A stretch of 15,014 nucleotides of DNA from the UHGV virus genome UHGV-0136760; one strand, 5' to 3'. Positions within the stretch are counted from its first letter, which is position 1. Each line of letters begins with the position of its first letter. The notes under the pieces were generated by a model. It was given only the letters and a program-made list of their open reading frames with translations, did no database searches and was not told the origin of the DNA. A program made the position numbers and the translations under genes. Shown in pieces: positions 191 to 15,014 of this stretch. This DNA comes from a virus.

Positions 191-250
191 TGTGGATATC
201 CTCAAATACAGCCAAACGTGCTGGTGGAACAAGCCACCAGCATTAAAAAA

Positions 251-436
251 TCAGTGGCGAATGCAGCCAGCGAAAAAGCAGACATGTGTAGGCGCTACCA
301 GGCGACGCGCTTCTTTTTCTGTTTCAGCTTCAATGCGGAAGGTGACGAGTTTTTTTTCTTTAGAATCGCGAGGAAGACCGCCGATGATCCATAGCGGGGG
401 GCGTTTATCGGATTTGGAATTAGCGTAAATATTCAT
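251..436 (-). CDS. hypothetical small protein (61 aa)
   Basis: Track ORF 251..520 trimmed to the ATG at 436, which has an AAGGAG Shine-Dalgarno 8 nt upstream. Sequence MNIYANSKSDKRPPLWIIGG...; no recognisable domain. Confidence 0.45.
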   Translation of the reverse strand: MNIYANSKSDKRPPLWIIGGLPRDSKEKKLVTFRIEAETEKEARRLVAPTHVCFFAGCIRH

Positions 437-677
437 AGTGTGACTCCTTGCATCTGGAGCCGCCGCAAGCTGTTCCACGGCTGGTGGCGGCGCAATACAG
501 GCTGGAACACCGTGAGTCACCGGGGGCTTTCAGCCACCCATATTGCGCCGCCATAACTATGACGCGGGCAATATTACAAAACTTAATAAGATTTGTCTCG
601 TTTGATTCGACGGTGCCAACCGACTAATAGGAATTTACTTAAAACTAATTTGTAGATCAACTAAAACTGTTAGAAAA

Positions 678-1283: not shown

Positions 1284-1330
1284 AGCGATACCTGGTTATT
1301 CATACGAGGACACTATGATTGATCGAATTC

Positions 1331-1358
1331 GTTAGAAATTCAAAATTGAATTTCTAAC
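1331..1358. promoter_or_regulatory. 28-bp palindromic operator-like site (GTTAGAAATTCAA-AA-TTGAATTTCTAAC)
   Basis: Perfect 13-bp inverted repeat arms with a 2-bp spacer, in the intergenic region between the divergent Ref-like gene and the rightward operon. A TTGAAT -35-like hexamer (1346-1351) lies inside it. Confidence 0.5.
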
Positions 1359-1403
1359 ACATTTTGGTAGTCTTTGCGCATTGCCTTCATTCGGGAGAAC
1401 ACA

Positions 1404-1556
1404 ATGCTGATTGTTTTGAGTGCGCTACACCTTCCGCCTCTAACTGACACCACCCTGTCTCATGGTCTGCTTTTGTTAGCGCTGGCACTTTTTGAACTTG
1501 GGATTGAGCTTTTTGCTTTGACGCTGTTTTTCGTAACGATGCTGGAGAAATTCTGA
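1404..1556 (+). CDS. small hydrophobic membrane peptide (50 aa)
   Basis: ATG at 1404 with a GGGAGAA Shine-Dalgarno 4-5 nt upstream. Almost entirely hydrophobic sequence (LLLLALALFELGIELFALTLFFV). Its stop overlaps the next start (TGATG). Confidence 0.4.
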   Translation: MLIVLSALHLPPLTDTTLSHGLLLLALALFELGIELFALTLFFVTMLEKF

Positions 1557-1849
1557 TGGCACGTGCTTTGAAGTTTTATATCGCTGGCCCCATGACTGGC
1601 TACCCTGATTACAACCGCGCAGCGTTCGATGCTAAAGCCAAAGAGCTTACGGAGCAGGGGTATACCGTAATTAACCCAGCCATGTTGCCGAATGGGCTTA
1701 CCCAGGCTGAATACATGGATATTTGCCTGGCGATGGTTCGTTCAGTTGATGCGGTGTATTTACTTAAAGGCTGGGAGGGATCCGCAGGAGCGCGGGCAGA
1801 GTACGCGCTGGCTGAAAAATTAGGCCTGATGACTGAGGTGGAGATATGA
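1556..1849 (+). CDS. DUF4406-like protein (nucleoside 2-deoxyribosyltransferase-like fold)
   Basis: N-terminal FYIAGPMTGYPDYNRAAF motif typical of DUF4406 / deoxyribosyltransferase-like proteins. GGAGAAA Shine-Dalgarno; its stop overlaps the downstream start (ATGA). Confidence 0.6.
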   Translation: MARALKFYIAGPMTGYPDYNRAAFDAKAKELTEQGYTVINPAMLPNGLTQAEYMDICLAMVRSVDAVYLLKGWEGSAGARAEYALAEKLGLMTEVEI

Positions 1850-2490
1850 GCAACCGTTTTTACATGTTGTGCCTTCGTGAAACGGTCGGTAATAACGCCT
1901 CATTCCATTGCCACAACGGTTATGGGTACAGTTCGGATATTGACCGCGCACATGTTTATACACGGGAAGAAGCCCAGCAGGAGTGGGAACGAGGACGAGA
2001 CATTGATCAGCCTGTTTGCGCTGATAGCGTGGATGCAATGGCTGTGTGGCACGTTGATTGCCAGTACATCCCTACAGAAAGCCTGATTGAGTCAGATTGC
2101 ACTGCGTATGTGGCCTACAAAAAAGGTAGCTGGAACGGCAACGATGTTTACTGGCTTCAACACGGTGGATTGCCAACAGATGACTTCAGTAAAGCGACCA
2201 TCTTTAGCGTCGCCAACAAAAACGAACCAGGAATAGTTTGGTTGCCATTTTCCATTGCTGATGCAGCAAAGCGCCGGACGTTCAATATCAATAACTTTAA
2301 CCGCAGAACAATGGTTCAGGGCGCAGGTTTAGTGATGCCTGAGTGGTTAAAAAAACAGAACAGACGAAAGGAATCACGTAGCGGTAAGGTGCGCTGGAAC
2401 TGTCCGTATTGCGGAAAAATCACCTGGCAATACAGCCCATATGATTTTGAAGGATGTCGTGATTATAACTGCGAAGGGTGGATGCAATGA
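1846..2490 (+). CDS. hypothetical protein with C-terminal zinc-ribbon (CPYCG...C..C), paralog copy A
   Basis: 214-aa ORF translationally coupled to the DUF4406 gene. C-terminal CxxC...CxxC motif. Near-identical paralog at 4590..5234. Confidence 0.65.
2005..2273 (+). repeat. 269-bp segment identical to 4749..5017 (core of duplicated gene)
   Basis: By-eye comparison of the two paralog genes: this core appears base-for-base identical, while flanking parts of the same genes are clearly diverged. Confidence 0.75.
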
Positions 2491-3149
2491 CGAAATACTA
2501 CCAGCGAATCGACGGCACAGAATTTAGAAATGTATGGGTAGTAGGCGATCTGCATGGCTGCCACACGCTGTTAATGAATGAGCTGGACCGCGTTGGCTTT
2601 AACCCGGAATGTGATTTGCTCATCTCTGTGGGTGATCTTATTGATCGTGGTCCTGAGAACGTTGAGTGCCTGGAGCTTTTACAGATGCCCTGGTTCAGGG
2701 CAGTAATGGGAAACCATGAGGATTTAATGCTCGACGGTATATCGCCAACGGGGAGTGTAACGAACTGGTTGATAAATGGCGGCGGTTGGTTCTACTCGCT
2801 GGATACGGATAAAAAAGCACTTGCTATGTCGCTGGTGGAACGTGTCAGACAGTTACCGTACATCATAGAGTTGAAAACCACGTCAGAAACTATCGTGATC
2901 GCCCATGCTGATTATCCGGACGGAGAATATCAATTTGGGAAGCAGGTGCCTTTTTTCACTGTTATGTGGGGCAGGGAACGCATCAGTGAGTCTATAGACG
3001 GCATCGGTGGAGAAATAGCAGGTGCTGACAGATTCATCTTTGGTCACTCACCTGTAAACATGCCTAAAACCTTCTGGAATCAGCACTACATCGACACTGG
3101 TGCGGTGTATTGCGGAAAACTGACGCTAATGCAGGTCCAGGGGGTTTAA
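2487..3149 (+). CDS. Ser/Thr protein phosphatase, lambda NinI (lambda PPase)-like metallophosphatase
   Basis: PPP-family metallophosphatase motifs GDLHGC, GDLIDRG and GNHE, and a length (220 aa) matching lambda phosphatase. Start taken at the ATG at 2487, which overlaps the upstream stop (ATGA), rather than the track start at 2478. Confidence 0.85.
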
Positions 3150-3165
3150 CTTTTCATGTGCCGCG

Positions 3166-3188
3166 CCGGGGAATAGCCGTGTCCCCGG
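3166..3188 (+). other. GC-rich hairpin (CCGGGGA-N9-TCCCCGG) downstream of the phosphatase gene
   Basis: 7-bp inverted repeat directly after the stop at 3149. Not followed by a T-tract, so not a canonical intrinsic terminator. Confidence 0.25.
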
Positions 3189-3223
3189 TCCGAACTATAG
3201 ATACAAAGCGCACAAACATAAGT

Positions 3224-3251
3224 GTTAGAAACTTGATTTTAATTTTCTAAC
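3224..3251. promoter_or_regulatory. second 28-bp operator-like site (GTTAGAAA-N12-TTTCTAAC)
   Basis: Same 8-bp outer arms and same 28-bp length as the palindrome at 1331-1358. Lies about 45 bp upstream of the 3295 start and overlaps a TTGATT -35-like element. Confidence 0.45.
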
Positions 3252-3294
3252 AGATTATTTTACCACTCGGAACAAAACTGAGTCGGTATCTATT

Positions 3295-4290
3295 ATGAGT
3301 GCAATTATTACCCCCTATGTCTCGCAAGAGACTGGTGTTGCAGTCTTTAAGGTAGATAAGGCCACCAGCGGCTTTATCGGTTCCGGTAGACGCTTCATCA
3401 TTTCCCCGTTACCACGCGAACAAGCAGAAAACACTGCTGATGGTATCGTAGACCTTAACTATTCGCTGGTGGCTAATGAATCCTTATCACCATTCTTCAA
3501 TAGTGAGCGTGTCTTTACCGTTCTTGGAGGCGAGGGTTCTTTAGTGTCATGGGTAAGTCGCAATATCCATGAATGCCAGGCGCATGACAAAACACTATGT
3601 AGCAACAGGTTAACTACCCATTTCCATAATGGTTCAGCCGTGCGTTTATGCTGGGATCATGACGCTGAGTACATGATGAAAGGCTACGACAAGTTACGTG
3701 ACCAACTGGCGCTTAACCGGGCCAACTGGATTATGAACTGGGCGGCTAGTGAGTTAAAACTCCCTGCTGAACGTGACCTGAGCATGGTTGAGCTTGCGTT
3801 CTGGGCTATTCGTCGCGGCCTGAAAAATGAGTTACCGGAAGAAGCCGGGCGTATCGCTTTGTGTCTGCCAAAAGATGAAATCCCTACCGGACCGCTGAAA
3901 GAGTCCGATATCACCTGGCAAAACAGTACACGTGAAATTGTGAATTTAACCGCAGAGCAGATCGTAACTATTGCCGTTGATGAAGATTCCGGCCTGCTTT
4001 ATATGCGCCGACCAAAAGCGGTCCTCGGTAAAAGCCCGGCTTATCTCCGGTTTGTGGTTTCTCGTCCGTGCATCGGATGCGGTGGCAAAGTTAACCACCC
4101 GTTCATGTACCGCGCCCGCTCGTTAAACGAACACGACCGCTGGGCTGTTCCTCTTTGCGATGACTGCGCCAGAAGCGCAGAAAACGATGTTCGGACATGG
4201 GAAAAAGCACATGGCATACGCCTTTACGTAGCCGCTAACCAGCTTTTCGACTTCGCCATTGAGCGCGGAGTGATCACGTTCAATAACTGA
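3295..4290 (+). CDS. DUF968-like (YdfU-like) phage protein with C-terminal Cys-rich HNH-like motif
   Basis: 331-aa ORF. C-terminus CIGCGGKVNHP...NEHDRWAVPLCDDC resembles an HNH/zinc-binding motif. Family assignment from memory of the DUF968 architecture; unverified. Confidence 0.55.
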   Translation: MSAIITPYVSQETGVAVFKVDKATSGFIGSGRRFIISPLPREQAENTADGIVDLNYSLVANESLSPFFNSERVFTVLGGEGSLVSWVSRNIHECQAHDKTLCSNRLTTHFHNGSAVRLCWDHDAEYMMKGYDKLRDQLALNRANWIMNWAASELKLPAERDLSMVELAFWAIRRGLKNELPEEAGRIALCLPKDEIPTGPLKESDITWQNSTREIVNLTAEQIVTIAVDEDSGLLYMRRPKAVLGKSPAYLRFVVSRPCIGCGGKVNHPFMYRARSLNEHDRWAVPLCDDCARSAENDVRTWEKAHGIRLYVAANQLFDFAIERGVITFNN

Positions 4291-4303
4291 TGGAAACAAC
4301 GCA

Positions 4304-4597
4304 ATGAGTCAAGGTAACGGTGACGGAGCTGCAAAGTGCAGAATCTCCACTTGTTTGATTAATGACAGAAAAATAGAACCGTGCGCGGCGCTGGCACAAT
4401 CTCTGGAGCAGGATGCTGAATACACGACGCGAAAAGGTCTGCTGAAATACAAAATCTATAACCATGAATTAATTCATTCACAAGACCTGATCATGCTGCG
4501 GTCTGGTGAATTTTCTAAATCGCCTATTCGAGTTTCATTTTGCCCGTTCTGTGGTGAAAGTCTGAAAACGTGGGAAGCGGAGGCAACCAGTGAATAA
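4304..4597 (+). CDS. hypothetical small Cys-containing protein (97 aa)
   Basis: ORF with cysteine pairs (CRISTC ... CPFCG) suggesting a zinc ribbon. Its 3' end overlaps the start of paralog copy B by 8 nt. Confidence 0.5.
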   Translation: MSQGNGDGAAKCRISTCLINDRKIEPCAALAQSLEQDAEYTTRKGLLKYKIYNHELIHSQDLIMLRSGEFSKSPIRVSFCPFCGESLKTWEAEATSE

Positions 4598-5234
4598 CCG
4601 CTTTTACATGATGTGCTTGCGTGAAACTGTGGGTAATAACGCCTCATTCCATTGCCATAACGGCAATGGTTACAGTTCTGATATCGATCGCGCTCATGTT
4701 TACACGCTGGAAGAAGCCCAAAAAGCCTGGAATTGTGGACGAGATATCGATCAGCCTGTTTGCGCTGATAGCGTGGATGCAATGGCTGTGTGGCACGTTG
4801 ATTGCCAGTACATCCCTACAGAAAGCCTGATTGAGTCAGATTGCACTGCGTATGTGGCCTACAAAAAAGGTAGCTGGAACGGCAACGATGTTTACTGGCT
4901 TCAACACGGTGGATTGCCAACAGATGACTTCAGTAAAGCGACCATCTTTAGCGTCGCCAACAAAAACGAACCAGGAATAGTTTGGTTGCCATTTTCCATT
5001 GCTGATGCAGCAAAGCGTCGGACGTTCAATATCAATAACGTTAACCGCAGAACAATGGTTCAGGGCGCAGGTTTGGTCATGCCTGACTGGTTGAAAGAGC
5101 AGAACAGAAGAAAGAAGTCGCGAAGCGGGAAGGTGCGTTGGAATTGTCCGCATTGCGGAAAAATAACCTGGCAGTACAGCCCATATGATTTTGAAGGCTG
5201 TAGTGATTACAACTGTGAAGGATGGCGAGAATGA
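4590..5234 (+). CDS. hypothetical protein with C-terminal zinc-ribbon, paralog copy B (GTG start)
   Basis: 214-aa ORF, same length and same C-terminal CxxC...CxxC motif as 1846..2490. The central part is identical at the nucleotide level; the ends are diverged. Confidence 0.65.
   Translation: MNNRFYMMCLRETVGNNASFHCHNGNGYSSDIDRAHVYTLEEAQKAWNCGRDIDQPVCADSVDAMAVWHVDCQYIPTESLIESDCTAYVAYKKGSWNGNDVYWLQHGGLPTDDFSKATIFSVANKNEPGIVWLPFSIADAAKRRTFNINNVNRRTMVQGAGLVMPDWLKEQNRRKKSRSGKVRWNCPHCGKITWQYSPYDFEGCSDYNCEGWRE
4749..5017 (+). repeat. 269-bp segment identical to 2005..2273
   Basis: See paired repeat feature; offset between copies is 2744 bp. Confidence 0.75.
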
Positions 5235-5839
5235 CAATTGACTATCAGGCACTGCGAGATGCGGCAGAACGTGCAATTCCAGCAATGGAACGCCTGTTAA
5301 TGTTGCCAGTTGATGATGATTTGTTAAGTGAACAGGAACTTAAAGATTACGGTGTGGATATTGATGCGCTCAACGCCTTCAAATTTCTGACCGGACCAGA
5401 AACCGTGCTGGCACTACTGGATGAGATCAACGCATTAGAGGAAGCGCGTATCAACGATGTTTGCCGTATTGCGGAACTAACAAAACAACTGGAGTTGGCA
5501 AAATCAAAACTCAACGAGCAGCGTGAGTATTACGAAGGTGTTATCTCGGATGGAAGTAAGCGCATAGCAGAACTGGAAGCGCGGGGAATAAAACCAGCCA
5601 AAGGTGAAGTTCTGGTCGTTGTATCTGGTTTTACTGGTTGCGGAAAAAGCGCCATTGCCGGGGAAATAGAAATCGCGATGAAGGCTATTGGTGTACCGGT
5701 TCAGTGGACTAATGGCGATGCGGAAAAGCGCATGACAGGAGCTGACTGGCTGACAGCGATTGAGATGTACAAACCAACAGTGCGCATCGTGGAAGTTAAT
5801 GTGCCACGCGCCGCTGGCATTCGCATCAAAGGAGAGTGA
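5231..5839 (+). CDS. Ead/Ea22-like protein with P-loop-like motif
   Basis: N-terminus MTIDYQALRDAAERA is typical of the Ead/Ea22-like family of lambdoid early-left accessory proteins. Contains GFTGCGKS, a Walker A-like motif. Start taken at the ATG at 5231, overlapping the upstream stop (ATGA). Confidence 0.6.
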   Translation: MTIDYQALRDAAERAIPAMERLLMLPVDDDLLSEQELKDYGVDIDALNAFKFLTGPETVLALLDEINALEEARINDVCRIAELTKQLELAKSKLNEQREYYEGVISDGSKRIAELEARGIKPAKGEVLVVVSGFTGCGKSAIAGEIEIAMKAIGVPVQWTNGDAEKRMTGADWLTAIEMYKPTVRIVEVNVPRAAGIRIKGE

Positions 5840-5840
5840 G

Positions 5841-6596
5841 ATGATTCACTACCACGGTGGGCCTATTACTCCTGATACGTGCGCAATGAGAGCATGGAAA
5901 GGGCGACATGCGTTTATCAGTTTTGCGCATTCAGGCCAGATCAATCTCGCGGCTGAATACTGTCAGTCGTTCGCGCTGGACAACGGTGCATTCACCGCCT
6001 GGAAAGCAGCTGGCAAAAACAAAATCGACTGGAGCGATTACTACGAGTTTGTTGCTCGCTGGAAGAATCACCCAGGATTCGATTTTGCCATTATCCCGGA
6101 TGTTATTGATGGCGGAGAGGAGGAAAATGATGCGCTTCTGAATGAGTGGCCTCACGGAAAACTAGCTGGCGTTCCAGTGTGGCACATGAATGAAAGTGAC
6201 GAGCGATTTATTCATTTGTGCAATGAGTTTCCGCGAGTGGCTATCGGTAGTTGTGGCGACTATGACGTAAAGCGCCCAACTCTTGCGGTAGCCAGAATGA
6301 AAGACCTGATTCGTCACATTGTTGATGAGTATGGTCAGCCGGTTACGAAACTACATGGGTTGCGCATGTTAAATCCGCTGATATTCACAAAATTACCCTT
6401 AGCCAGCGCAGATAGTACGAACGTCGCTCGAAACATCGGTATTGATAAAGCCTGGTCTGGGGCTTATGCACCTGCAAGTAAAGAGACACGCGCAGCATTA
6501 ATGGTAGAACGGATTGAGGCACACAATAGCCCTGGTTCTCTTGCGTATTGTGAACAACGCGACCGCTTTGAAATGCAATTGCAACTGGCAGTTTAA
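5841..6596 (+). CDS. TGT-like (tRNA-guanine transglycosylase fold) protein, candidate DpdA-like DNA 7-deazaguanine transglycosylase
   Basis: ATG at 5841 with an AAAGGAGAG Shine-Dalgarno. Three motifs in TGT order: LDNGAF (compare TDSGGFQ), VAIGSCGD (compare AVGGLAVGE) and ADSTNVARNIG (compare DCVMPTRNARNG). The protein is shorter (251 aa) than bacterial Tgt. Confidence 0.5.
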   Translation: MIHYHGGPITPDTCAMRAWKGRHAFISFAHSGQINLAAEYCQSFALDNGAFTAWKAAGKNKIDWSDYYEFVARWKNHPGFDFAIIPDVIDGGEEENDALLNEWPHGKLAGVPVWHMNESDERFIHLCNEFPRVAIGSCGDYDVKRPTLAVARMKDLIRHIVDEYGQPVTKLHGLRMLNPLIFTKLPLASADSTNVARNIGIDKAWSGAYAPASKETRAALMVERIEAHNSPGSLAYCEQRDRFEMQLQLAV

Positions 6597-6606
6597 GGAC
6601 TAACAC

Positions 6607-7029
6607 ATGACCACTATTACCAAAGAACGTGCGGAGATTAAATCATTCATCACAGGCTTCCTGAGCGACCCGGCGCACGATAACCAATCTTCAGACAGCC
6701 TGCTTGCCAATGTGTTTCGTATCGCGCTGGCATCGCTGGAAGCAGAGGCTATTGGTGAAGTTTCAGAGCAGCGACATGGCCTTGTTATGGATGGAACGGT
6801 ATATCTTGGTGAGAAATCAACTTATCGCATCATTAAGGGAGAAAAAGCGATGAAGTTGTTGCCGCTGGGGACGAAGTTTTATACCGCACCGCCAGTGCCT
6901 GTAGTGCCGGAAGAAAAACCAATGCCTAACCCTCTTAGCATGTACGCGGTTGATGCTGTTGCCGCTATTGCAGAGGTGAGAGGCTGGAATGCCTGCCGTG
7001 CTGCCATGCTTAAGGGGAAAGGAGAGTGA
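6607..7029 (+). CDS. hypothetical protein (140 aa)
   Basis: ORF with AAGGACTAA Shine-Dalgarno. Shares the N-terminal MTTIT start with the next gene. No recognised domain. Confidence 0.55.
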   Translation: MTTITKERAEIKSFITGFLSDPAHDNQSSDSLLANVFRIALASLEAEAIGEVSEQRHGLVMDGTVYLGEKSTYRIIKGEKAMKLLPLGTKFYTAPPVPVVPEEKPMPNPLSMYAVDAVAAIAEVRGWNACRAAMLKGKGE

Positions 7030-7030
7030 T

Positions 7031-7579
7031 ATGACCACTATTACCAATAAGAAACAGTATCCCAGCGAGCAATATCTTAATGAGCTGATCACCAACATAG
7101 AGTTTGCTGCAAGGGCACCAGTTGAAGTCGTGAGAGCGATGGCAGCAGAGCTACAGAAGCGGCGCGAAGCTGATAGTGCAGAACCTGTAAGCCAAACTTA
7201 CAAGTTGCCAGTTAATACACCTTGCCAAGATGCGCCAGCCCATATCTGGCTGCAAACGGCTGGAGTATGGCCAGAAGATGGCGAGTTAAGCGAATTAACG
7301 TGGTGCAGCCACAATCAGCACCATGATGACACGCTATATGTTCGAGCTGACCTTGTGAATGGCAACTATCCGGTAACTCCGGATGGTTGGATAAGCTGTA
7401 GTGAGCGAATGCCCCCTCAAGATGATTGGATTTTAATTTATTCAAAGCACGGCGAGTATATGGCAGGACAGGTACAAGGGGAATACGTGGAGTTGAGCGA
7501 CGGCACTTTATCGTGGTTAGGGAACGCCTTGTACTGGATGCCACTACCAGAGCCGCCGCAGGAGGTTAACCGTGGCTAA
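7031..7579 (+). CDS. hypothetical protein with C-terminal DUF551-like domain
   Basis: ATG at 7031 with a GGAGAG Shine-Dalgarno. C-terminal region GWISCSERMPP...WMPLPEPP matches the phage DUF551 signature. Confidence 0.55.
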   Translation: MTTITNKKQYPSEQYLNELITNIEFAARAPVEVVRAMAAELQKRREADSAEPVSQTYKLPVNTPCQDAPAHIWLQTAGVWPEDGELSELTWCSHNQHHDDTLYVRADLVNGNYPVTPDGWISCSERMPPQDDWILIYSKHGEYMAGQVQGEYVELSDGTLSWLGNALYWMPLPEPPQEVNRG

Positions 7580-7853
7580 CCTGCAACTTGCCGTCAAAGG
7601 TGAATACTTCGATGCCATGATTCGCGGAGAGAAAACGGAAGAGTATCGCTTGTGTAATGGCTACTGGAATAAGCGAATCATGTTCCGGGAATATGACCGC
7701 CTGATTATCACAAAGGGATATCCGAAGCGCGACGATTCCAGTCGCAGAATAGACGTCCCGTATAACGGATATGAAATCAAGACAATCACACATCCGCACT
7801 TCGGTGATAAACCGGTAAAGGTGTACGCGATAAAGGTGAATATCAATGGCTAA
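7572..7853 (+). CDS. ASCH/DUF3850-like small protein
   Basis: GTG start with a GGAGG Shine-Dalgarno. N-terminal LAVKGEYFDAMIRGEKTEEYR resembles the ASCH-domain beta-barrel motif. Overlaps its neighbours at both ends. Confidence 0.5.
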   Translation: MANLQLAVKGEYFDAMIRGEKTEEYRLCNGYWNKRIMFREYDRLIITKGYPKRDDSSRRIDVPYNGYEIKTITHPHFGDKPVKVYAIKVNING

Positions 7854-8274
7854 ATTTCAAAGAGCTATTATTTTTCTGGCTATGTTATCAGCCAGTCATT
7901 TATCCCACGCGTCAGTTATTGCCGCTGGAGCGGCGGCAACAGCGGCGGCAACAGCGGCGACCACGGCGGCAGTAAATGCTTCTATCGCCAGCGAGCAAGC
8001 GCGGCGTGCTGCAACCAATGCTTCCGCAAACACCACCACGGTATCAGTCACACAATCAAAACCGAATATAGGCTTTGTTACTTGTGGCAAGCGATATGGT
8101 GAAATGGTTGGCTCTCTTGGTTGCGTAATGTGGCAAGACGACGACCGAACAGAAATTCCGTGGAACTCATGGCCTGGCTACATTCTTGGTAAGAAGCTGC
8201 CCACCAGCTATGAAGTAAATGCTATTTCGTTCGACCAATATAACAGTGTTGCAACGGTCTATTTCTCTTATTAA
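7846..8274 (+). CDS. secreted protein with signal peptide and Ala/Thr-rich low-complexity region
   Basis: N-terminal signal-peptide-like segment MAKFQRAIIFLAMLSASHLSHA, followed by an Ala/Thr-rich tract and a C-terminal domain containing two Cys. Confidence 0.6.
   Translation: MAKFQRAIIFLAMLSASHLSHASVIAAGAAATAAATAATTAAVNASIASEQARRAATNASANTTTVSVTQSKPNIGFVTCGKRYGEMVGSLGCVMWQDDDRTEIPWNSWPGYILGKKLPTSYEVNAISFDQYNSVATVYFSY
7931..7966 (+). repeat. tandem 12-bp repeat (CGGCGGCAACAG x2 plus one degenerate unit) inside a CDS
   Basis: Direct tandem units read in the sequence; they encode the AAATAAATAATT low-complexity tract. Confidence 0.5.
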
Positions 8275-8286
8275 CACGGAGTAATT

Positions 8287-8580
8287 ATGTGGCGCGGTAA
8301 TAATCATGGTGGAAGCCAGATGATACTTACCGAATATCAGCTCGACCACAAAACCAATAAATCACGCTCAGTATATTTGCTTCGGCACAATAGCCGCGTA
8401 AGGAATACCGTGCTGGAGCAAAATCTGACCGTTGAAATGGATAATTCGGGGAACTTCAAGCCAACAATTTCGCTTGATGATTTTCCGCGTGGTTTAAGCG
8501 AAAGAGAAGCCATGCTGAAATTAGCAGAATGGCTTCAGAGGTTAAGTATTGTTATTGAAGATAACTGGAGTCAACCATAA
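8287..8580 (+). CDS. hypothetical protein (97 aa)
   Basis: ATG at 8287 with an ACGGAG Shine-Dalgarno 5 nt upstream. An alternative internal start at 8320 also has a Shine-Dalgarno. Confidence 0.5.
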   Translation: MWRGNNHGGSQMILTEYQLDHKTNKSRSVYLLRHNSRVRNTVLEQNLTVEMDNSGNFKPTISLDDFPRGLSEREAMLKLAEWLQRLSIVIEDNWSQP

Positions 8581-8756
8581 TGAAAAACAGAAAGAAATTT
8601 TGGATTACTTTTTTGTTTGTATGCCTTTGCGGTTTATTTATTTTATTAGCTGGTGGTGTTAAATGGGGTACGGTGGGGTGTGGTTTTTGGAGCGGGGTTA
8701 CTCTTTTCGCAGCCTGGCTTATCGCCAACTTTGAGTCAGGCGGAGGGTATTGGTAA
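8580..8756 (+). CDS. small membrane protein (58 aa, two predicted TM helices)
   Basis: Not in the ORF track (under 60 aa). ATG at 8580 overlaps the upstream stop (TAATG), with a GGAG about 10 nt upstream. Translation MKNRKKFWITFLFVCLCGLFILLAGGVKWGTVGCGFWSGVTLFAAWLIANFESGGGYW. Confidence 0.45.
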   Translation: MKNRKKFWITFLFVCLCGLFILLAGGVKWGTVGCGFWSGVTLFAAWLIANFESGGGYW

Positions 8757-8776
8757 GTGGTCTTATTCCCCACTTC

Positions 8777-8830
8777 ATAACGGATATCACGCTCGTGATA
8801 ACGGATATTCCAATTTTGATAACGGATAAG
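8777..8830 (+). promoter_or_regulatory. three phased direct repeats of (G)ATAACGGATA upstream of the 8836 gene
   Basis: Copies at about 8777, 8797 and 8818, spaced 20-21 bp apart (about two helical turns), in the 79-bp intergenic gap. Confidence 0.45.
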
Positions 8831-8835
8831 GCCAA

Positions 8836-9045
8836 ATGAAGCATTTTTTAAGGTTGGCATTTGTTCTGGCGCTATTTGATCCTCCGGCTGCAATGGCTGG
8901 AGAACAGCAACATTGCACAAAAGAGAATGAACACCCTTTCATCGTTATTCAATGTGATGACGGAACGGTGACAGTGGTTAATGTAAGAAATGACCGTGTA
9001 GCCGTATGCCGTAAAGGCGAACCATGCAAGGAAATAAAACTATGA
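8836..9045 (+). CDS. small secreted Cys-containing protein (69 aa) with signal peptide
   Basis: N-terminal signal-peptide-like MKHFLRLAFVLALFDPPAAMA, then a mature part with four Cys. Confidence 0.55.
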   Translation: MKHFLRLAFVLALFDPPAAMAGEQQHCTKENEHPFIVIQCDDGTVTVVNVRNDRVAVCRKGEPCKEIKL

Positions 9046-9806
9046 CTAAAATCACTAAATTTCGCATATCAGAGATTATTGCACGCATCGAAATGTATGG
9101 ACACGGCGCTGGATACACGGCAGATGAGGTATTGGAGCTTGCCCAAATGGCTTTGGCGACTTGCAAAGATGGTAAAACAATGAAGCTGATCGACTTGTTA
9201 GTGAAGGAGTTGCCTAAGCGCGGCGGATGGCCTTATGGTATGATCGATTGTCGCCTGCTCAGTGCCAATTTAATGGTGCCATGCGCGACTTTTGCTTTTG
9301 GCTCAGACTGCAAAAAAGACCAGTTCGATGGGCGCAATTTTTGTTTTGAGATTGAGCTTCCAATTCATGACCTTGATAGCGATGAATACCAGTCAGTTGT
9401 CACTCACGAACAATACGAAGCCGCTCTCATAGCGTCGCAGCAAGTCGAGTTCAATGGTGATGAACTTGAAAGTAAGGCTTACAAGTTAGATTTTGAGCAA
9501 TGGCTGGAGCAGCAGCGCGGGAAAATCGATGTGGACTGCGGTTGTGTGTCTGCGGAAACATTCATGCACTGGTTGCGGGTAGCTTATGAGGCTGGCAACC
9601 ATCCGGATTTTCCGGATAGTTCCCAACAAGCGCCCAGGAAAAGCGTAAAAACCACTCTGGAAAGAGGCTATCTTGAGGCCGCATTAAAGATTAAGCCGGG
9701 CCATACGCTAGGCGTCATTGATGCCATGTTGGTTCATGAAATGGCGAAGGCTTTATTGCCGCTGGTGGCTGATAAACATGAGGCGGACCATGCCAACGAA
9801 AGCTGA
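9042..9806 (+). CDS. hypothetical protein (254 aa)
   Basis: Start taken at the ATG at 9042 (MTKITKF...), which has an AAGGAAAT Shine-Dalgarno and overlaps the upstream stop. No recognised domain. Confidence 0.55.
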   Translation: MTKITKFRISEIIARIEMYGHGAGYTADEVLELAQMALATCKDGKTMKLIDLLVKELPKRGGWPYGMIDCRLLSANLMVPCATFAFGSDCKKDQFDGRNFCFEIELPIHDLDSDEYQSVVTHEQYEAALIASQQVEFNGDELESKAYKLDFEQWLEQQRGKIDVDCGCVSAETFMHWLRVAYEAGNHPDFPDSSQQAPRKSVKTTLERGYLEAALKIKPGHTLGVIDAMLVHEMAKALLPLVADKHEADHANES

Positions 9807-10074
9807 GTTACAGGCGCGCGTAGAGATTCTTGAAAAAGAGAATGCCAGCCTCAAAGGAATGCTGGCGCGGGCGGAAAGGGAATTATCAGGTAAATTATTG
9901 CCAGAGGAGCGACCACCAGCAGATATACCCGACCGAGTGTCCCGGTGGATGAAGTCTTTTTGTTTGTCGTGGGAGACTTTTTGGTGCTACGACCATCGCA
10001 GATGGTGCGATGAACTTGATAGCAGCTTTCCCTACTTTGCGGAAGGTAACACCTGCCCTCAATGCAGGGGATGA
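9790..10074 (+). CDS. coiled-coil protein with C-terminal Cys-rich (zinc-finger-like) tail (94 aa)
   Basis: ATG at 9790 within track ORF 9718..10074. N-terminal heptad-like segment ELQARVEILEKENASLKGMLARAERE; C-terminal CxxxxW...C...CPQC. Confidence 0.45.
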   Translation: MPTKAELQARVEILEKENASLKGMLARAERELSGKLLPEERPPADIPDRVSRWMKSFCLSWETFWCYDHRRWCDELDSSFPYFAEGNTCPQCRG

Positions 10075-10415
10075 GATTTAACGAAATCGATCACCCTATC
10101 CTGAACTTCAGAAAGAAGGTCTTTTTCACAAGCCAGGACGTCATGATATTGACGTTCTGGCCTCACCAGATGCCGAAGCCTCCCATTAAGCAGGATGGCC
10201 TCAGAAAACACTTTTACGCTGTGCTTTACCCCCTCTGCTTCACTTTTAAGCGTCAAAATAAAGCGCAATTGCTTAATTGCATTGGCATGATTCAGGTTCA
10301 ATACACGAATTTGCAGTTCGTCTATGCTATTTCGCAATGGGATTGATGCCACCACACTGGTGCAGTCTCTGATTGTCTGAATTGAACGGCTAACATTGAG
10401 AACGTTATTGTGCAT
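10059..10415 (-). CDS. hypothetical protein (118 aa), antisense to the main operon
   Basis: Long minus-strand ORF with plausible protein-like composition, divergent from the 10448 gene. Weak ribosome-binding site. Competes with plus-strand ORF 10062..10346. Confidence 0.35.
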   Translation of the reverse strand: MHNNVLNVSRSIQTIRDCTSVVASIPLRNSIDELQIRVLNLNHANAIKQLRFILTLKSEAEGVKHSVKVFSEAILLNGRLRHLVRPERQYHDVLACEKDLLSEVQDRVIDFVKSHPLH

Positions 10416-10447
10416 GTGCCTGATCCACTAACTCTAGGAGGTTTCTT

Positions 10448-10699
10448 GTGTCAGATCGAAATATAGCAGCTAAAAGCCAGGAAGAGCGAGACAAGGTGAA
10501 CGTAGACCTTGCCGCCAGCGGCGTTGCTTACAAAGAACGGCTGAATATACCTGTGATTGCAGAGCAGGTGGCCCGTGAGCAACCGGAAAACCTGCGCGCC
10601 TATTTCATGGAACGGCTACGGCACTACCGGAAGTTAAGCCTCCAGTTGCCAAAAGGGAGCGATCCGGTGTATCAGAACGAGGATGCACCAAAAAAATAA
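10448..10699 (+). CDS. hypothetical protein (83 aa), GTG start
   Basis: Strong AGGAGG Shine-Dalgarno about 7 nt upstream of the GTG. No recognised domain. Confidence 0.55.
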
Positions 10700-10784
10700 C
10701 GGCAAGATGGGGGAGAAATGTGATTAGCCCCCAGCGTGGCGCGCCTACAAACCCCGCTTTCACAAACTATGCCTTTTCAATGTA

Positions 10785-10804
10785 TACTGTATGAATAAAC
10801 AGTA
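10785..10804 (+). promoter_or_regulatory. LexA box (SOS box) TACTGTATGAATAAACAGTA
   Basis: Matches the CTGT-N8-ACAG consensus. Lies about 20 bp upstream of the UmuD'-like gene and overlaps -10-like hexamers. Confidence 0.7.
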
Positions 10805-10822
10805 TCATTGAGGTAAAACGCT

Positions 10823-11212
10823 ATGGGCTTCCCTTCTCCTGCGGCGGATTATGCAGAGAGCCGCATTTCTCTTGATCAGCAACTAATCAGACATCCTTCC
10901 GCGACCTACTTCATGCGGGCGGCAGACAGCCATCACCGTGAGGGAATATTGCAAGGTGCTTTGCTGGTGGTTGATTCCTCACTTACTCCGGTTGATGGTT
11001 CACTGCTTATATGCGCTATGGAGGGTGAATATCGCATAAAGAGATACAGGAAGTATCCGCGCCAGCACCTGGAGGATTTAAGCACCGGGAAGAAAGAGGC
11101 GTTACCAGTAGATGACGATGGATGCACGGGCAGTAATGCTGTGTTTGGTGTGATCACTCATGTCATTAATGATGCCCGAAGTGGGGAGTTTGATTATAGA
11201 CCTGTGATTTAA
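10823..11212 (+). CDS. UmuD'-like protein (S24 LexA/UmuD peptidase fold lacking the N-terminal arm; P1 HumD-like)
   Basis: Starts MGFPSPAADYAE, i.e. at the position corresponding to the UmuD to UmuD' cleavage site. Colinear with E. coli UmuD' through to FGVITHVI. GAGGTAAAA Shine-Dalgarno. Confidence 0.8.
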   Translation: MGFPSPAADYAESRISLDQQLIRHPSATYFMRAADSHHREGILQGALLVVDSSLTPVDGSLLICAMEGEYRIKRYRKYPRQHLEDLSTGKKEALPVDDDGCTGSNAVFGVITHVINDARSGEFDYRPVI

Positions 11213-11223
11213 GGCGCATAAAG

Positions 11224-11252
11224 AAGCCCGCCAGACCTGGCGGGCTTTTTGT
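11224..11252 (+). terminator. Rho-independent terminator (10-bp GC-rich stem, GACC loop, T5 run), probably bidirectional
   Basis: AAGCCCGCCA-GACC-TGGCGGGCTT followed by TTTTT, placed between the convergent stops at 11212 and 11258. The reverse strand has a T-rich tail after the same hairpin. Confidence 0.75.
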
Positions 11253-11257
11253 TGATA

Positions 11258-12352
11258 TCATTCAATGATTTTTTCGGCTGTCAGCCAGCTAATTTCGTGC
11301 CTGTCTTTCGGCGGTTTTAGCATGTGAGCATATTCAGCGACATGCTCCCACGGAATTGTTTTTGCCCACTCAACGATAGCATTGTGATCTGCAGTGAAGA
11401 GTGGAATAGTGTGCGATTTCAACCATTCTAATGTCGTGACGCCATGTTTTTTGGCGTGGTGCTGCGCATGATGCCGGGCTATCACTCGTAATGGCATTGT
11501 CCATTCACTACCATCAGGCATCGAAAAGCGCATTGTCTTCGGCATATCTGATTCAAGAACAGCCTCCCTAATACCAGGGAACTCACCAAGAATCATACGA
11601 CGATAGTCATCACTATTTCGCCCGCCATACCTTTCGGCAAAATGATCAAGATATTCTTGGGTAATAAATGGTGAATCCTCCGCACTCAGCTTAATGGCTT
11701 TATATACACCACTCGGATTATCTTCAGCTAAAGCACGTCCATGATGTGAATCATAAAAAAAGCCTATTTCCTCTGGTGACGGAATTGAAGTGAGCAATAT
11801 GCGTGAATCACCACTAGTCATGCTTGCCCACACAATGCTGTATGCCCGATCGCTGATATGTGCGGAATCCACAATAATGAATAAAAGATGGTCGGCGTAG
11901 TGACCTGCAATGCTATCTTCATAGTTAAGGCGGTAGTTACAAAAGCACATTCCCCAAAATTCATTGAACATCAGACCGCTATCACCGACCTTAAAATACT
12001 CAATGATAAAAGGTTGTTTTTTCAGCAATGCCTCCCAACATTGCCACACATATGCAACAATTCCTCTTTTGCAAACATTTGATTTTGGATAAACAATTAC
12101 TGTCCGGGAATCAGGATACATAATCGTATAAAGGGTACTAATAACAGCAAGCACTTGCGGTCGTCCGATCCCATACGGAGTGGTGACAGTAGCTTTTGCA
12201 TTATTGGGCTGTATAGCTTCAACAATTTGTTGTTGCTGGTGGCTTAAATCAATATCAAACAATTCTTTTGCTGCCAGTACCCAATTGTCTTTATATTTCT
12301 CCACCAGCGACAGCCAGCGCGGATCTTTATAAATATTGCTCTTAGTCGCCAT
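11258..12352 (-). CDS. terminase large subunit-like ATPase-domain protein (no nuclease domain)
   Basis: Start taken at the internal ATG at 12352 (MATKSNIYK...), which has an AAGGAAG Shine-Dalgarno and overlaps the upstream stop. Terminase-like motif order: P-loop-like GIGRPQ, Walker B-like LLFIIVDSAH, motif III-like LLTSIPSPEE, then YRRMILGEF. Only 364 aa. Confidence 0.5.
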   Translation of the reverse strand: MATKSNIYKDPRWLSLVEKYKDNWVLAAKELFDIDLSHQQQQIVEAIQPNNAKATVTTPYGIGRPQVLAVISTLYTIMYPDSRTVIVYPKSNVCKRGIVAYVWQCWEALLKKQPFIIEYFKVGDSGLMFNEFWGMCFCNYRLNYEDSIAGHYADHLLFIIVDSAHISDRAYSIVWASMTSGDSRILLTSIPSPEEIGFFYDSHHGRALAEDNPSGVYKAIKLSAEDSPFITQEYLDHFAERYGGRNSDDYRRMILGEFPGIREAVLESDMPKTMRFSMPDGSEWTMPLRVIARHHAQHHAKKHGVTTLEWLKSHTIPLFTADHNAIVEWAKTIPWEHVAEYAHMLKPPKDRHEISWLTAEKIIE

Positions 12353-13109
12353 CTGCCACTTCCTTAACTTCTTCTTTGGCCTGTTCTGCAATCGCCGCAC
12401 GGCATTTCGCCCTGGCTGTAGCGATTGCTTCAGCTCGCACATCGTCTGGAATCGTTGACGTGATATACATATCCAGTTCTTCGGCACGGAATACTGTTTG
12501 GTCCAGATATTCGCGTAGCATCCAGGTAAATTCGAAATCACACGCGATAATCTCTGCGCTACCTTCTGCACCATTTGGGAAATGAATAAATGCCTGTTTA
12601 GCCAAACCGATAACACGACATGCGGTTGCCAAAACAGCGACAACCAGGTTTACATTTTCACACGCTACGGGCTGATTAACGCCGGAGATTACTCCATTTA
12701 ACTGTCGGTTATATGGAAGGTAGTTTGAGATGCGTTCTACGCGCCATGTGCCAGTCAGGCTGCCATTTTTAAAGATAATTGGTGTAACGGATAGCCCAAG
12801 CTCGCGTATAAGTCGTTGCGCTATAGCAGGATCATTAAACAGGTCTAATGCTACACATTCGAAAGACTGCGCAAGGGCAAACAGTTCTTCCAGAGAGTAG
12901 TCTTTGCCCCTGGCGGTGATGTAACGACGAACGCCGCTGTCTGCATCACTCCATATAGCTACGCCATGCTCTTCATTCAGCTCTTCATTAAAGCCGAGAT
13001 ACGTCATGATAGTGCGTTCAATCGTGTCAAACGGCAGTGACATGTCGGCGTTAACAGCCACCAGCAGGCCATTACGCAAGCGGTATTGAATTGTTTTAGT
13101 GCTTTCCAT
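12342..13109 (-). CDS. hypothetical protein (255 aa)
   Basis: ORF with a GGAG Shine-Dalgarno. Acidic Ala-rich C-terminal tail. No recognised domain. Confidence 0.55.
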   Translation of the reverse strand: MESTKTIQYRLRNGLLVAVNADMSLPFDTIERTIMTYLGFNEELNEEHGVAIWSDADSGVRRYITARGKDYSLEELFALAQSFECVALDLFNDPAIAQRLIRELGLSVTPIIFKNGSLTGTWRVERISNYLPYNRQLNGVISGVNQPVACENVNLVVAVLATACRVIGLAKQAFIHFPNGAEGSAEIIACDFEFTWMLREYLDQTVFRAEELDMYITSTIPDDVRAEAIATARAKCRAAIAEQAKEEVKEVADGD

Positions 13110-13115
13110 GTCAAA

Positions 13116-13778
13116 TCACTCCACAACAAACCAGTCACAGGCCAGCAGGTCGCCAACTGAAGGCACCCACGGAACAACTACACCTTGTGCATTTTTTAAG
13201 GCGAAATAAGCACCATACGGAACGAGGTCGCCGGGGAAATATCCCTTAATGGCTTCCATTCGTGCCGGGTGCTGTCCTTCAGGAACCAGCCAGCAGAATT
13301 GGTCTTCGCCGTTCCACCCGCGTCGAGCAACTTTCTTGCCATCCTTCATCCACATCAGCGCGTCAGAAAAGTCGGCTGCTTCAAGGTCGATTTCTTCTTG
13401 TAGAGTAGCGATACCGCCAGCAGAAATAGTTACGTCCCTGGCTGTAATGAATGTCACCCCATTGTGACCTTCAATGCTGAGCGATACCCCATTTTCGGAG
13501 GCGTCGTTAACCCGGCTATAGCATTTTTCAAATGCTTTCTCTGGCACATAGACCAGATAACCATTTTCAGCAGTGACGAGATATCCTCCTATTTGCGGTC
13601 GGAACTTTTCCAAGAACACACCATCAACACGAAGCGTCATTCCTTTTGGCTCCACGACTTCGATGCTGCCAAAAATGGGCGCATAAGCTTTGCCGACAAT
13701 AACAATATCTTTGATTTTCGATGCCCGAATGATGCTGTGGCATTTGTATTTGGGGAACACCTGAAAAGTGCTGGCCAT
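13116..13778 (-). CDS. two-domain protein with C-terminal DUF2829 (Tad2-like) domain
   Basis: C-terminal ~90 aa (FSDALMWMKDGKKVARRGWNGEDQFCWLVPEG ... VVPWVPSVGDLLACDWFVVE) matches the DUF2829 signature. The N-terminal ~125 aa is an unrelated domain. GAGGAAGG Shine-Dalgarno. Confidence 0.6.
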   Translation of the reverse strand: MASTFQVFPKYKCHSIIRASKIKDIVIVGKAYAPIFGSIEVVEPKGMTLRVDGVFLEKFRPQIGGYLVTAENGYLVYVPEKAFEKCYSRVNDASENGVSLSIEGHNGVTFITARDVTISAGGIATLQEEIDLEAADFSDALMWMKDGKKVARRGWNGEDQFCWLVPEGQHPARMEAIKGYFPGDLVPYGAYFALKNAQGVVVPWVPSVGDLLACDWFVVE

Positions 13779-13792
13779 AATCCTTCCTCTAC

Positions 13793-14287
13793 TTAAAACT
13801 TTGCGTACTGAAGCGGTGTACGCTTGATTTCAACGCGGCCTTCCGATGTGCTACCAAAGCCACCAGCACCACGCTCCGTTTCGTTGAGTTCCTCAACCTC
13901 GACTAGTGAGACTTGTTCAACACGCTCAAAAATACCTTGCATGACAGCCATTCCAGGCTTGAGACAAACGCCTTCCCCGCCGGGATCAGTAATCAGTTTT
14001 GCCATGATTTCGCCGCGATAATCGGAGTCGATAATTCCTACGCAGTTAGCCAGGCGAGTATGTTTTTTGCAGCCCAATCCGGATCGCGGATAGAGTTTCA
14101 GACACCAGCCGGGCGGGATCTCCATAGCCAGTCCGGTATACACCCACCAGCTTGAGGAAATTGCACCATTGCTATCGACGCATGGTGTTATTTCAACAGC
14201 CTCAAAATCCATTGCTGCCGATCCTGCGGTGGCATAGAACGGCAGTTTTGCACCAGGATGCAGGCGCTTCACTTTTACGTTAATCAT
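13793..14287 (-). CDS. dut: dUTP diphosphatase (trimeric dUTPase)
   Basis: Start taken at the internal ATG at 14287 (MINVKVKRL...). All recognisable dUTPase motifs present: YATAGSAAMDF, PRSGLG, GIIDSDYRGE and RGAGGFGSTS. Overlaps the upstream gene by 8 nt. Confidence 0.85.
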   Translation of the reverse strand: MINVKVKRLHPGAKLPFYATAGSAAMDFEAVEITPCVDSNGAISSSWWVYTGLAMEIPPGWCLKLYPRSGLGCKKHTRLANCVGIIDSDYRGEIMAKLITDPGGEGVCLKPGMAVMQGIFERVEQVSLVEVEELNETERGAGGFGSTSEGRVEIKRTPLQYAKF

Positions 14288-14771
14288 GCTTCTTTGCTCT
14301 TTTGGTGAAGGTGTAAATTCGACGTTTAATATGCGGGGCAGTCGGTACGGATACGTTTGTGGATTCGATAATGCCTTGCTCTTCAAGAGAGCGAACGGCA
14401 CGCAGGAACTGAGACGCATCGCCGCCACCGGACAGCCAGAATTTACGGGCGTAAATGCTGCCGTTACGGATAATTTCAGCAACGACACGAGACTGGGTTT
14501 GTGTTTCACGATAGGCAAACAGTTGCCGGGCTTCTTCCGGCGTAATAGCCAGTTGATAGCCTTTCCCCTTATGGGCGCGAAGAAAACCAAACGACACCAG
14601 GTGTTTTAGTTCCCTGCGCGTAGTCTCATAACCGTATTCCTGTATCTGGAGATTGAGATCGGCGGGCTTTAGCCATGCTTCCGGCGACTCAGTAAGAAGC
14701 GCCAGCAACTTACCGGATAGCTCAGGGGAGGAAGACGGGTAACAGTTAAGAGATGGGTAATAGTGTTTCAT
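14280..14771 (-). CDS. hypothetical protein with winged-helix-like segments (163 aa)
   Basis: ORF translationally coupled at both ends (ATGA overlap upstream, 8-nt overlap with dut). Helix-turn-helix-like stretches (LKHLVSFGFLRAHKGKGYQL; FLRAVRSLEEQGIIES). Confidence 0.55.
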   Translation of the reverse strand: MKHYYPSLNCYPSSSPELSGKLLALLTESPEAWLKPADLNLQIQEYGYETTRRELKHLVSFGFLRAHKGKGYQLAITPEEARQLFAYRETQTQSRVVAEIIRNGSIYARKFWLSGGGDASQFLRAVRSLEEQGIIESTNVSVPTAPHIKRRIYTFTKRAKKHD

Positions 14772-15007
14772 TTGCGCCCCCTTACTGGATAATGAGAGCG
14801 GGCATCAACCGGAGCAATGAATCCGGTTGTAGGGCGGGAAAATACGAGATCAATCTTCTCGGTCATGGCGCGATAGTTTTCCTGATAGTGGGCCAGGAGT
14901 TTTTCAGCAGCAATGACGGTTACTCGCTGGACGTAGCTTTCAGCTTCGCCCAGGTTTGACCATTTCTTTTCGAGGGTAAGTACAGGTACGGTCTCAAGCC
15001 CTGTCAT
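14768..15007 (-). CDS. hypothetical small protein (79 aa or longer; may be 5'-truncated by the window edge)
   Basis: ORF whose stop overlaps the next start (ATGA). No in-frame stop between the ATG at 15007 and the window end, so the true start may lie outside the window. Confidence 0.4.
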   Translation of the reverse strand: MTGLETVPVLTLEKKWSNLGEAESYVQRVTVIAAEKLLAHYQENYRAMTEKIDLVFSRPTTGFIAPVDARSHYPVRGRK

Positions 15008-15014
15008 GATTCCG

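Follow-up and report, generated by a model that had tools for sequence, protein, structure and literature searches.

Predicted envelope-targeted proteins, one with a length-variable in-frame repeat, in the accessory operon of a D6-like phage-plasmid

The viral genome UHGV-0136760 was analysed over a stretch of 15,014 nt, which is referred to in its entirety as the window. It represents the accessory operon that runs from ref to hot in a D6-like phage-plasmid, a P1-related, plasmid-like prophage of Escherichia coli/Salmonella. Positions 7846–9045 hold four tightly packed, co-oriented open reading frames (ORFs) encoding p142, p97, p58 and p69 (Table 1). Sequence rules and family-wide conservation indicate that p142, p58 and p69 are envelope-targeted, and p142 contains a hypervariable in-frame tandem repeat. 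A preliminary description of the locus had named the p142, p58 and p69 genes. All three exist at the positions given there and are annotated by RefSeq in the nearest plasmid, NZ_CP150992.1, including the 177-nt p58 gene that had been omitted from the ORF track then available. The RefSeq label for each of the four ORFs in that record is 'hypothetical protein'.

The genes of this interval follow one another with little or no intervening DNA. The first 8 nt of p142 are shared with the end of the ASCH gene upstream, p97 begins 12 nt past p142 behind the Shine–Dalgarno sequence GGAG, the stop of p97 and the start of p58 overlap in TAATG, and the stop of p69 overlaps the start of the next gene in ATGA at 9042. 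The gap between p58 and p69 is 79 nt (8757–8835). A Shine–Dalgarno sequence is present at each gene of the interval. Consensus scans, which provide weak evidence, found no promoter-like site on the plus strand at 7000–9100, and their sole terminator-like match (7876–7895) fell inside the p142 signal-peptide coding sequence. With start and stop codons overlapping or almost adjoining, and with no promoter- or terminator-like signal marking the genes off, they form part of a phage operon, in agreement with the preliminary description. Ratios of nonsynonymous to synonymous substitution rates (dN/dS), calculated by the Nei–Gojobori method against diverged alleles, were 0.09–0.33 across all four ORFs (p142, 0.10–0.17; p97, 0.09–0.23; p58, ~0.33; p69, <0.3). 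These low values indicate that all four are real, constrained genes.

Table 1. Features of the p142–p69 interval and its surroundings in the window (aa, amino acids)
Feature	Position	Strand	Description
ref	678–1283	minus	
p142 gene	7846–8274	plus	142-aa exported precursor (predicted); PHROG 8805, E = 3.7e-49, unknown function
p142 signal peptide, aa 1–22	7846–7911	plus	MAKFQR / AIIFLAMLSA / SHLSHA, then SV; predicted by rule-based test
p142 spacer, aa 23–73	7912–8064	plus	Low-complexity Ala/Thr/Ser/Asn; from alignments
12-bp tandem repeat	7929–7970	plus	Unit GCGGCGGCAACA encoding AAAT; Tandem Repeats Finder, 3.5 copies, two full AAAT units
p142 C-terminal domain, aa 74–142	8065–8271	plus	~69 aa; six beta strands and one helix in AlphaFold2 (AF2) model
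p97	8287–8580	plus	97 aa; PHROG 1258, E = 2.2e-48, unknown function; not in the envelope set
p58	8580–8756	plus	58 aa, predicted small inner-membrane protein; N-terminus KNRKK, transmembrane segment 7–25, weaker segment 34–52
Three direct ATAACGGATA copies	8777–8828	plus	Exact 21-bp period; last copy ends 7 nt before p69 ATG
p69	8836–9045	plus	69-aa exported precursor (predicted); PHROG 20764, E = 8e-40, unknown function
p254, downstream operon gene	9042–9806	plus	254 aa; context; mosaic, C-terminus matches D6 orf104
hot	10448–10699		Beyond the accessory genes
humD	10823–11212		After hot

Signal peptides were called by hand-written rules, which demanded a positive n-region, an uncharged hydrophobic h-region of 7–15 residues, small neutral residues at positions −3 and −1, and no proline from −3 to +1. 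Three of the 26 window genes passed (p142, p69 and the first transmembrane segment of p58), and the other 23 failed. All 16 p142 relatives and all eight p69 relatives tested passed as well. Alignments of both families showed a signal-peptide sequence that drifts and an A-x-A motif that stays in register, the pattern expected of a cleaved signal. Cleavage of p142 is predicted after A22, with an alternative site, VIA↓AG, at 26/27; at the aligned A-x-A site its homologues read AQA↓S, VQA↓S, ANA↓A and AHA↓V. The lipobox [LVI][ASTVI][GAS]C was absent at the signal-peptide end of p142, p58 and p69: the earliest Cys in p142 is C80, mature p69 reaches its first Cys at +6 within QQHC, and the VCLCG of p58 lies inside its transmembrane core. 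The preliminary description had presented the three as consecutive envelope products. Three such products are indeed predicted, but p97, in which the rule-based test and hydropathy detected no export signal, hydrophobic segment or transmembrane segment, intervenes between p142 and p58.

Every p142 relative found shares a three-part architecture, in which a low-complexity spacer links the signal peptide to a conserved C-terminal domain. Across the family this spacer varies from roughly 15 to 50 residues and is rich in Ala, Thr, Ser, Asn and Gln. The domain is characterized by the motif GFVTCG...SLGC...IPW..WPGY.LG..LPASY.V.A.SFD.YN..ATVYF.Y, in which the alignment columns of C80 and C93 are invariant, suggesting a C80–C93 disulfide. 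A full-length AF2 model from a shallow alignment was unusable (predicted local distance difference test score, pLDDT, 54); it drew the spacer as one long helix at low confidence (pLDDT ~50). The domain was modelled instead by itself, on alignment A6, which had been enriched from an exhaustive hidden Markov model (HMM) search, and gave a pLDDT of 89 and a predicted template modelling score (pTM) of 0.74. With a known fold defined by a Foldseek E ≤ 1e-3 or a template modelling score (TM-score) > 0.5, no known fold was matched in the PDB, where the best E was 0.16 and TM-scores were ≤0.38. Profile searches of p142 against PDB sequences returned only E ≥ 0.44. The only significant match to the domain in BFVD was a 51%-identical viral protein of 117 aa, evidently a family member.

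The p142 family is very small. The exact protein occurs on 36 Enterobacteriaceae contigs, and the exhaustive HMM search of 1.84 billion proteins recovered the domain in 14 representative clusters, whose members with an organism name were all from Enterobacteriaceae or their phages. A 136-aa version lies in the early operon of Mu-like prophages, flanked by MuB and GemA/Mor and co-oriented with the transposase genes. Another 136-aa version is carried by the Vequintavirinae phage Av-05, which we take to be rV5-like and virulent, and a 117-aa version is present in the 45-kb phages KW1E_UTAR and Klebsiella KLB16/KLB22. The domain is thus kept in four unrelated phage backbones. None of p97, p58 and p69 was found at the p142 loci of the Mu-like prophages, Av-05 and other phages, and a linkage of p142 to these genes outside phage-plasmids was rejected. 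In RCS47, conversely, ASCH is followed directly by p97, without p142. On both counts p142 is a self-contained cassette. Its presence in a Mu-like early operon and in Av-05 argues for a job in lytic growth, a role that fits p142 better than lysogenic conversion. The term 'prophage cargo', used in the preliminary description, is therefore doubtful for p142, and that interpretation probably chose the wrong phase of the life cycle. The idea that p142 and p69 are paralogues was also rejected, the probability in profile–profile comparison being 0.04.

The repeat in the p142 spacer had been placed at 7931–7966. The 12-bp repeat is real, although the extent given by Tandem Repeats Finder is greater (period 12, consensus AGCGGCGGCAAC; Table 1). 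Among close relatives the p142 gene measures 402, 405, 417, 429, 438 or 441 nt, and when the window gene and 11 fetched alleles were aligned as DNA, the length differences fell in the repeat tract. A single AAAT unit is found in L003 and L004; L001, L002 and the window gene have two, and L005, L006 and L010 have three. The same series is seen among protein-cluster members: P0114, P0113 and P0115 are identical except for one, two or three AAAT units (138, 142 and 146 aa; 75, 376 and 59 contigs, respectively). A sister lineage varies in a different unit of 21 bp, encoding the seven residues AATTAAT, with one copy in L003 (138 aa), two in P0126 (145 aa) and three in P0129 (152 aa); a single such unit is the sole difference between P0126 and P0129. 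The L009 allele has a 21-bp duplication, and differs from L003 by a single substitution and this 21-bp indel. All alleles, from the 11 relatives and from six full-length cluster members, are in frame.

The tract is therefore a hypervariable in-frame tandem repeat whose copy number differs on otherwise identical proteins. As both the 12- and the 21-bp units are multiples of three, the spacer changes in length with no phase-variation switch; steps of 4 or 7 residues are length tuning or drift, not phase variation. The preliminary description had called the tract slippage-prone and length-variable, and had suggested that copy number be compared among relatives. Copy number does vary, at 1, 2 or 3 units between isolates, and a slippage switch is excluded by units that keep the frame.

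The remaining genes of the interval combine more loosely. p97 occurs without p142 in RCS47, SJ46, L020 and L022. The first transmembrane segment of p58 (approximately residues 7–25) is strong, with Kyte–Doolittle values up to 2.97, and is conserved in the family; the second hydrophobic segment (approximately 34–52) is weaker, with a mean hydropathy of ~1.3 by hand calculation. Both are retained in a diverged 52-aa allele in L005. The earlier assignment of p58 as a two-transmembrane peptide is thus likely, though not certain. Class II holins have two transmembrane segments and a highly charged, basic C-terminal tail, and lie in a lysis cassette; p58 was rejected as such a holin, its C-terminus (NFESGGGYW) being without basic residues and its neighbours not being lysis genes. 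The p58 family comprises 10 clusters and the p69 family 17; they lie on contigs of at most ~95 kb, a size usual for phage-plasmids. p69 is found without p58 in L022 and behind other membrane-protein genes in L020.

The slot between p97 and the p254 equivalent was compared in L002–L009, L012, L013 and L020, and holds different small hydrophobic proteins depending on the relative: p58 with p69, the 52-aa p58 variant with a 124-aa membrane protein, a 102-aa protein, or the 124-aa protein alone. The 124-aa protein has one long hydrophobic stretch, residues 52–89, enough for two transmembrane segments. The position after p97 behaves as a swap site for membrane-protein cassettes.

p69 had been described as a Cys protein with a signal peptide, and this description stands. 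The signal peptide spans residues 1–21 with predicted cleavage at AMA↓GEQ, and the mature protein of 48 aa has four conserved Cys, three of them invariant and the fourth present in at least 90% of sequences (alignment A2), which would be consistent with two disulfides. Homologues with 73–75% identity occur on IncI2 plasmids (L024, NZ_CP028155.1, at 4122–4373; L023 at 2501–2752). They lie in the type IV secretion system (T4SS) transfer region, upstream of virB6- and virB5-type genes and of two EexN lipoprotein genes. Of 517 plasmid records that matched, all IncI2 among those checked, only 26 covered at least 80% of the query block holding the homologue.

The gap ahead of p69 contains an array of direct ATAACGGATA repeats (Table 1). 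Five ATAACGGATA matches were found in the window, against 0.68 expected, including one further copy at 7762–7771. The array also precedes p69 in many viral contigs, and in L020 (2442–2493), where the p69 allele is 77% identical, copies of the motif persist between diverged spacers. No stable RNA fold was found in the 8757–8835 gap, which folded no better than shuffled sequence (z = 0.43), and there was no Rfam match anywhere in the window. An inverted repeat resembling a lambda operator (TATCACG..CGTGATA) in the first ATAACGGATA spacer was dropped, not being conserved in L020. Further instances were noted in L026, L035 and L039. Elsewhere the 21-bp ATAACGGATA repeat encodes a heptad linker, 'ITDSxxx', of lambdoid ea-region proteins that are Ead/Ea22- or DUF551-like by resemblance alone. 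The heptad-linker frame in the window corresponds to a 29-codon ORF at 8750–8839, MVSGLIPHFITDITLVITDIPILITDKAK. The array could represent a relic of recombination or a tiny ORF, or it might be regulatory, as a binding array for a protein or, through GGA sites, of CsrA type.

The setting of these genes was defined by comparison with phage and plasmid records. By megablast of the whole window, the best phage-record match was Escherichia phage D6, a 91-kb plasmid-prophage and relative of P1. Synteny with D6 extends over 23–15014, with 40% of the window aligned at 87% identity; D6 has none of the four ORFs p142, p97, p58 and p69. The nearest Escherichia coli records are non-mobilizable plasmids of ~90 kb, and NZ_CP150992.1 is 96% identical over 7572–9776. 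A divergent control region separates ref from a long plus-strand operon of ~20 small accessory genes of lambdoid type, including DUF4406, Ead/Ea22, metallophosphoesterase, DUF968, DUF551 and ASCH genes; past humD, the minus-strand genes include DUF2829 and dut. The D6 gene matched by the C-terminus of p254, orf104, is described in the D6 record as 'similar to P1 gene pmgU'. The accessory stretch of the window corresponds to pmgT–humD of P1, which is 'highly variable region 8' of P1-like phage-plasmids, and simABC is their variable region 4 (PMC9603915). Literature searches yielded this variable-region framework and nothing on p142, p97, p58 or p69. The three small genes with predicted envelope products are slotted into this variable operon as independent cassettes, co-transcribed with their neighbours.

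The divergent control region also contains a perfect palindrome with 12-bp arms, GTTAGAAATTCA-AAAT-TGAATTTCTAAC, at 1331–1358. It is conserved in D6 with two changes, and half-site-like matches occur at 669–681 and 3239–3251. The palindrome is a candidate operator of the operon carrying p142–p69. It is not a P1 C1 operator; that operator, considered as a clue to timing, had no match within 3 mismatches.

Function searches gave little direction. Pfam and NCBIfam scans of all ORFs produced only sub-threshold noise, PADLOC gave no matches, and the three PHROG matches (8805, 1258 and 20764) are all of 'unknown function'. A tblastn search with p142 gave no match at E ≤ 1e-3 to P1, Sim included. Superinfection exclusion or surface modification, as proposed in the preliminary description, thus has no link in PADLOC, Pfam, NCBIfam, PHROG, the P1 tblastn search or the PDB. 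A role in superinfection exclusion is plausible.

Several known systems resemble these proteins in part. P1 Sim, encoded in a variable region of a plasmid-prophage, acts in the periplasm after a Sec signal peptide has been cleaved from its precursor. p142 likewise lies in a variable region of a P1-type plasmid-prophage; however, it has no sequence similarity to Sim (SimC), which is roughly twice its size and is encoded in a different part of the genome. Phage T4 makes Sp (spackle; 97 aa) and Imm (83 aa) in lytic growth to stop secondary infection, and the pairing of a small exported periplasmic protein with a small two-transmembrane inner-membrane protein would be matched by p69 or p142 with p58. 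In contrast to T4 Sp and Imm, p142 shows neither sequence nor fold similarity to them, and p142, p58 and p69 are independently mobile cassettes rather than a fixed pair. p69 is also comparable to the EexN/TrbK entry-exclusion lipoproteins of T4SS clusters (~70–95 aa, exported) in being small and predicted to be exported, and the IncI2 homologue lies ~2.2 kb upstream of the two EexN genes in a common transfer-region gene block. Unlike those lipoproteins, p69 has a predicted A-x-A signal peptidase I site and no lipobox Cys, and it does not match the NCBIfam EexN model. Finally, a short coding tandem repeat in a predicted exported protein, with copy number differing between close isolates, recalls simple-sequence contingency loci such as phase-variable surface genes, but the p142 units are of 12 or 21 bp, the variants are in frame and the protein is never switched off. 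All three, p142, p58 and p69, belong to the familiar class of small envelope proteins encoded by phages; they are uncharacterised, and public databases already list them as hypothetical proteins.

Considered as a whole, the operon setting, export, repeat and envelope action are probably best explained as follows. p142 would be exported by Sec and cleaved by signal peptidase I after the conserved A-x-A site, and its C80–C93 disulfide would form in the periplasm. It would then be a soluble periplasmic protein in which the Ala/Thr-rich spacer carries a small beta domain that binds a component of the host envelope. p58 would be a hairpin or single-pass inner-membrane peptide, and p69 a 48-residue periplasmic protein with two disulfides. 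We tentatively suggest that p142, p58 and p69 might act in the envelope once the cell has been induced or infected. They might, for instance, prevent secondary infection or the entry of DNA, for which T4 Sp and Imm and P1 Sim provide analogues; this part of the account is possible and more doubtful than the rest. Their expression as factors in the resting lysogen is less likely.

A number of observations weigh against this explanation. The signal peptides were called by hand-written rules, not SignalP, and conservation is the sole basis of the disulfides. No homology-based link to a function was found in Pfam, NCBIfam, PADLOC, PHROG, the PDB or BFVD. p69 is common to IncI2 plasmids and plasmid-prophages, both persistent elements, so that a maintenance or carrier-state role fits as well as a lytic one. 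The operator-like palindrome at 1331–1358 suggests repressor control, tied to no repressor. The changes in spacer length may be neutral.

The closest competing explanation is that the genes are cargo expressed in the lysogen, protecting the carrier by superinfection exclusion or surface modification in the manner of P1 Sim, T5 Llp, phi80 Cor or lambda Bor/Lom. We consider this unlikely. It would account for envelope-targeted products encoded in a variable accessory region of a plasmid-prophage, for relatives that hold alternative small membrane proteins in the same slot, and for p69 relatives beside EexN entry-exclusion genes in a conjugative T4SS region. However, p142, p58 and p69 have no similarity to known exclusion or defence families and no lipobox, no promoter or terminator of their own was detected by the consensus scans, and p142 relatives are also found in Av-05 and in the early operon of Mu-like prophages, which is repressed; expression in a lysogen would be impossible or unexpected in these settings. 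Alternatively, the proteins, in the periplasm or membrane, could serve host takeover or lysis timing. They would inhibit a process of the host envelope, involving peptidoglycan turnover, division, porins or periplasmic nucleases, to the benefit of phage replication or plasmid DNA transfer, with no part in exclusion. The operon with its early and accessory genes, the occurrence in both temperate and Vequintavirinae phages, the sharing of p69 with a conjugative-plasmid transfer region and the purifying selection on all genes would agree with this. We nevertheless regard it as rather improbable: no lysis genes are adjacent in the window, the PDB search found no fold similarity of the p142 domain to Ivy, PliC/MliC or Sp, and p58 does not have the charged C-terminus typical of class II holins.

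That the genes are near-neutral ORFan passengers, with the repeat polymorphism as slippage noise in a disordered tail, seems very unlikely. The families are tiny and narrow (14 clusters for the p142 domain and 10–17 each for p58 and p69), and the cassettes are often absent or replaced in relatives, as would be expected of passengers. This is countered by dN/dS values of 0.09–0.33, by Cys and cleavage sites that are invariant across 45–65% identity, by the confident, compact AF2 fold of the p142 domain and by its retention in four unrelated phage backbones. A bolder reading would make p142 an unrecognised class of phage periplasmic effector: a new beta fold on a probably helical stalk that slippage steps by 4 or 7 residues, forming a 'ruler' across the periplasm, with P1/D6-, Mu- and rV5-like phages exploiting a common envelope step. 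Steps of 4 or 7 residues would amount to about one or two helical turns and would set the reach of the domain toward its host target. We offer this as a long shot only.

Superinfection exclusion, receptor masking and host takeover have repeatedly been traced to small phage proteins that are exported or lie in membranes, most of which are unannotated. Nothing at this locus is mechanistically surprising as things stand; its most distinctive features are the orphan fold of p142 and the natural series of spacer lengths. p142 combines a predicted exported domain without a structural relative with natural alleles that differ only in spacer length and constitute a ready-made allelic series. p69 is a small, Cys-rich and presumably disulfide-bonded periplasmic protein common to phage-plasmids and IncI2 plasmids. 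If any of these proteins were to block infection or conjugation, the result would bear on phage therapy and on the ecology of P1/D6-like and IncI2 plasmids that carry resistance.

Further features were noted elsewhere in the window. A canonical LexA box, CTGTATGAATAAACAG, at 10787–10802 overlaps the −10 element of the best sigma-70-like promoter of the window (10759–10802), 21 nt upstream of humD. This arrangement gives humD an SOS-controlled promoter of its own, independent of the operon that precedes it. The 45 nt between humD and the first minus-strand gene (11213–11257) contain no phd-doc addiction module or pdcA; the module is present at this position in D6, RCS47, SJ46 and the closest E. 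coli plasmid. At the other end of the operon, the first gene is a 50-codon, very hydrophobic ORF at 1404–1556 (MLIVLSALHLPPL...LLLLALALFELGIELFALTLFFVTMLEKF), an unannotated small membrane peptide whose stop overlaps the next start (TGATG) and whose equivalent in D6 is orf88. A gene for a 214-aa protein, with no assigned function, occurs twice in the operon, at 1846–2490 and 4590–5234. The copies are 2744 bp apart and 90% identical over their first 300 nt (1847–2146 and 4591–4890), and homologous recombination between them could delete the intervening metallophosphoesterase, DUF968 and 97-aa genes. The DUF551 genes upstream of ASCH in L002, L004, L005, L008 and L011 differ widely in length and often appear in annotations as pseudogenes with truncations or frameshifts, which fits frequent recombination in that part of the operon.

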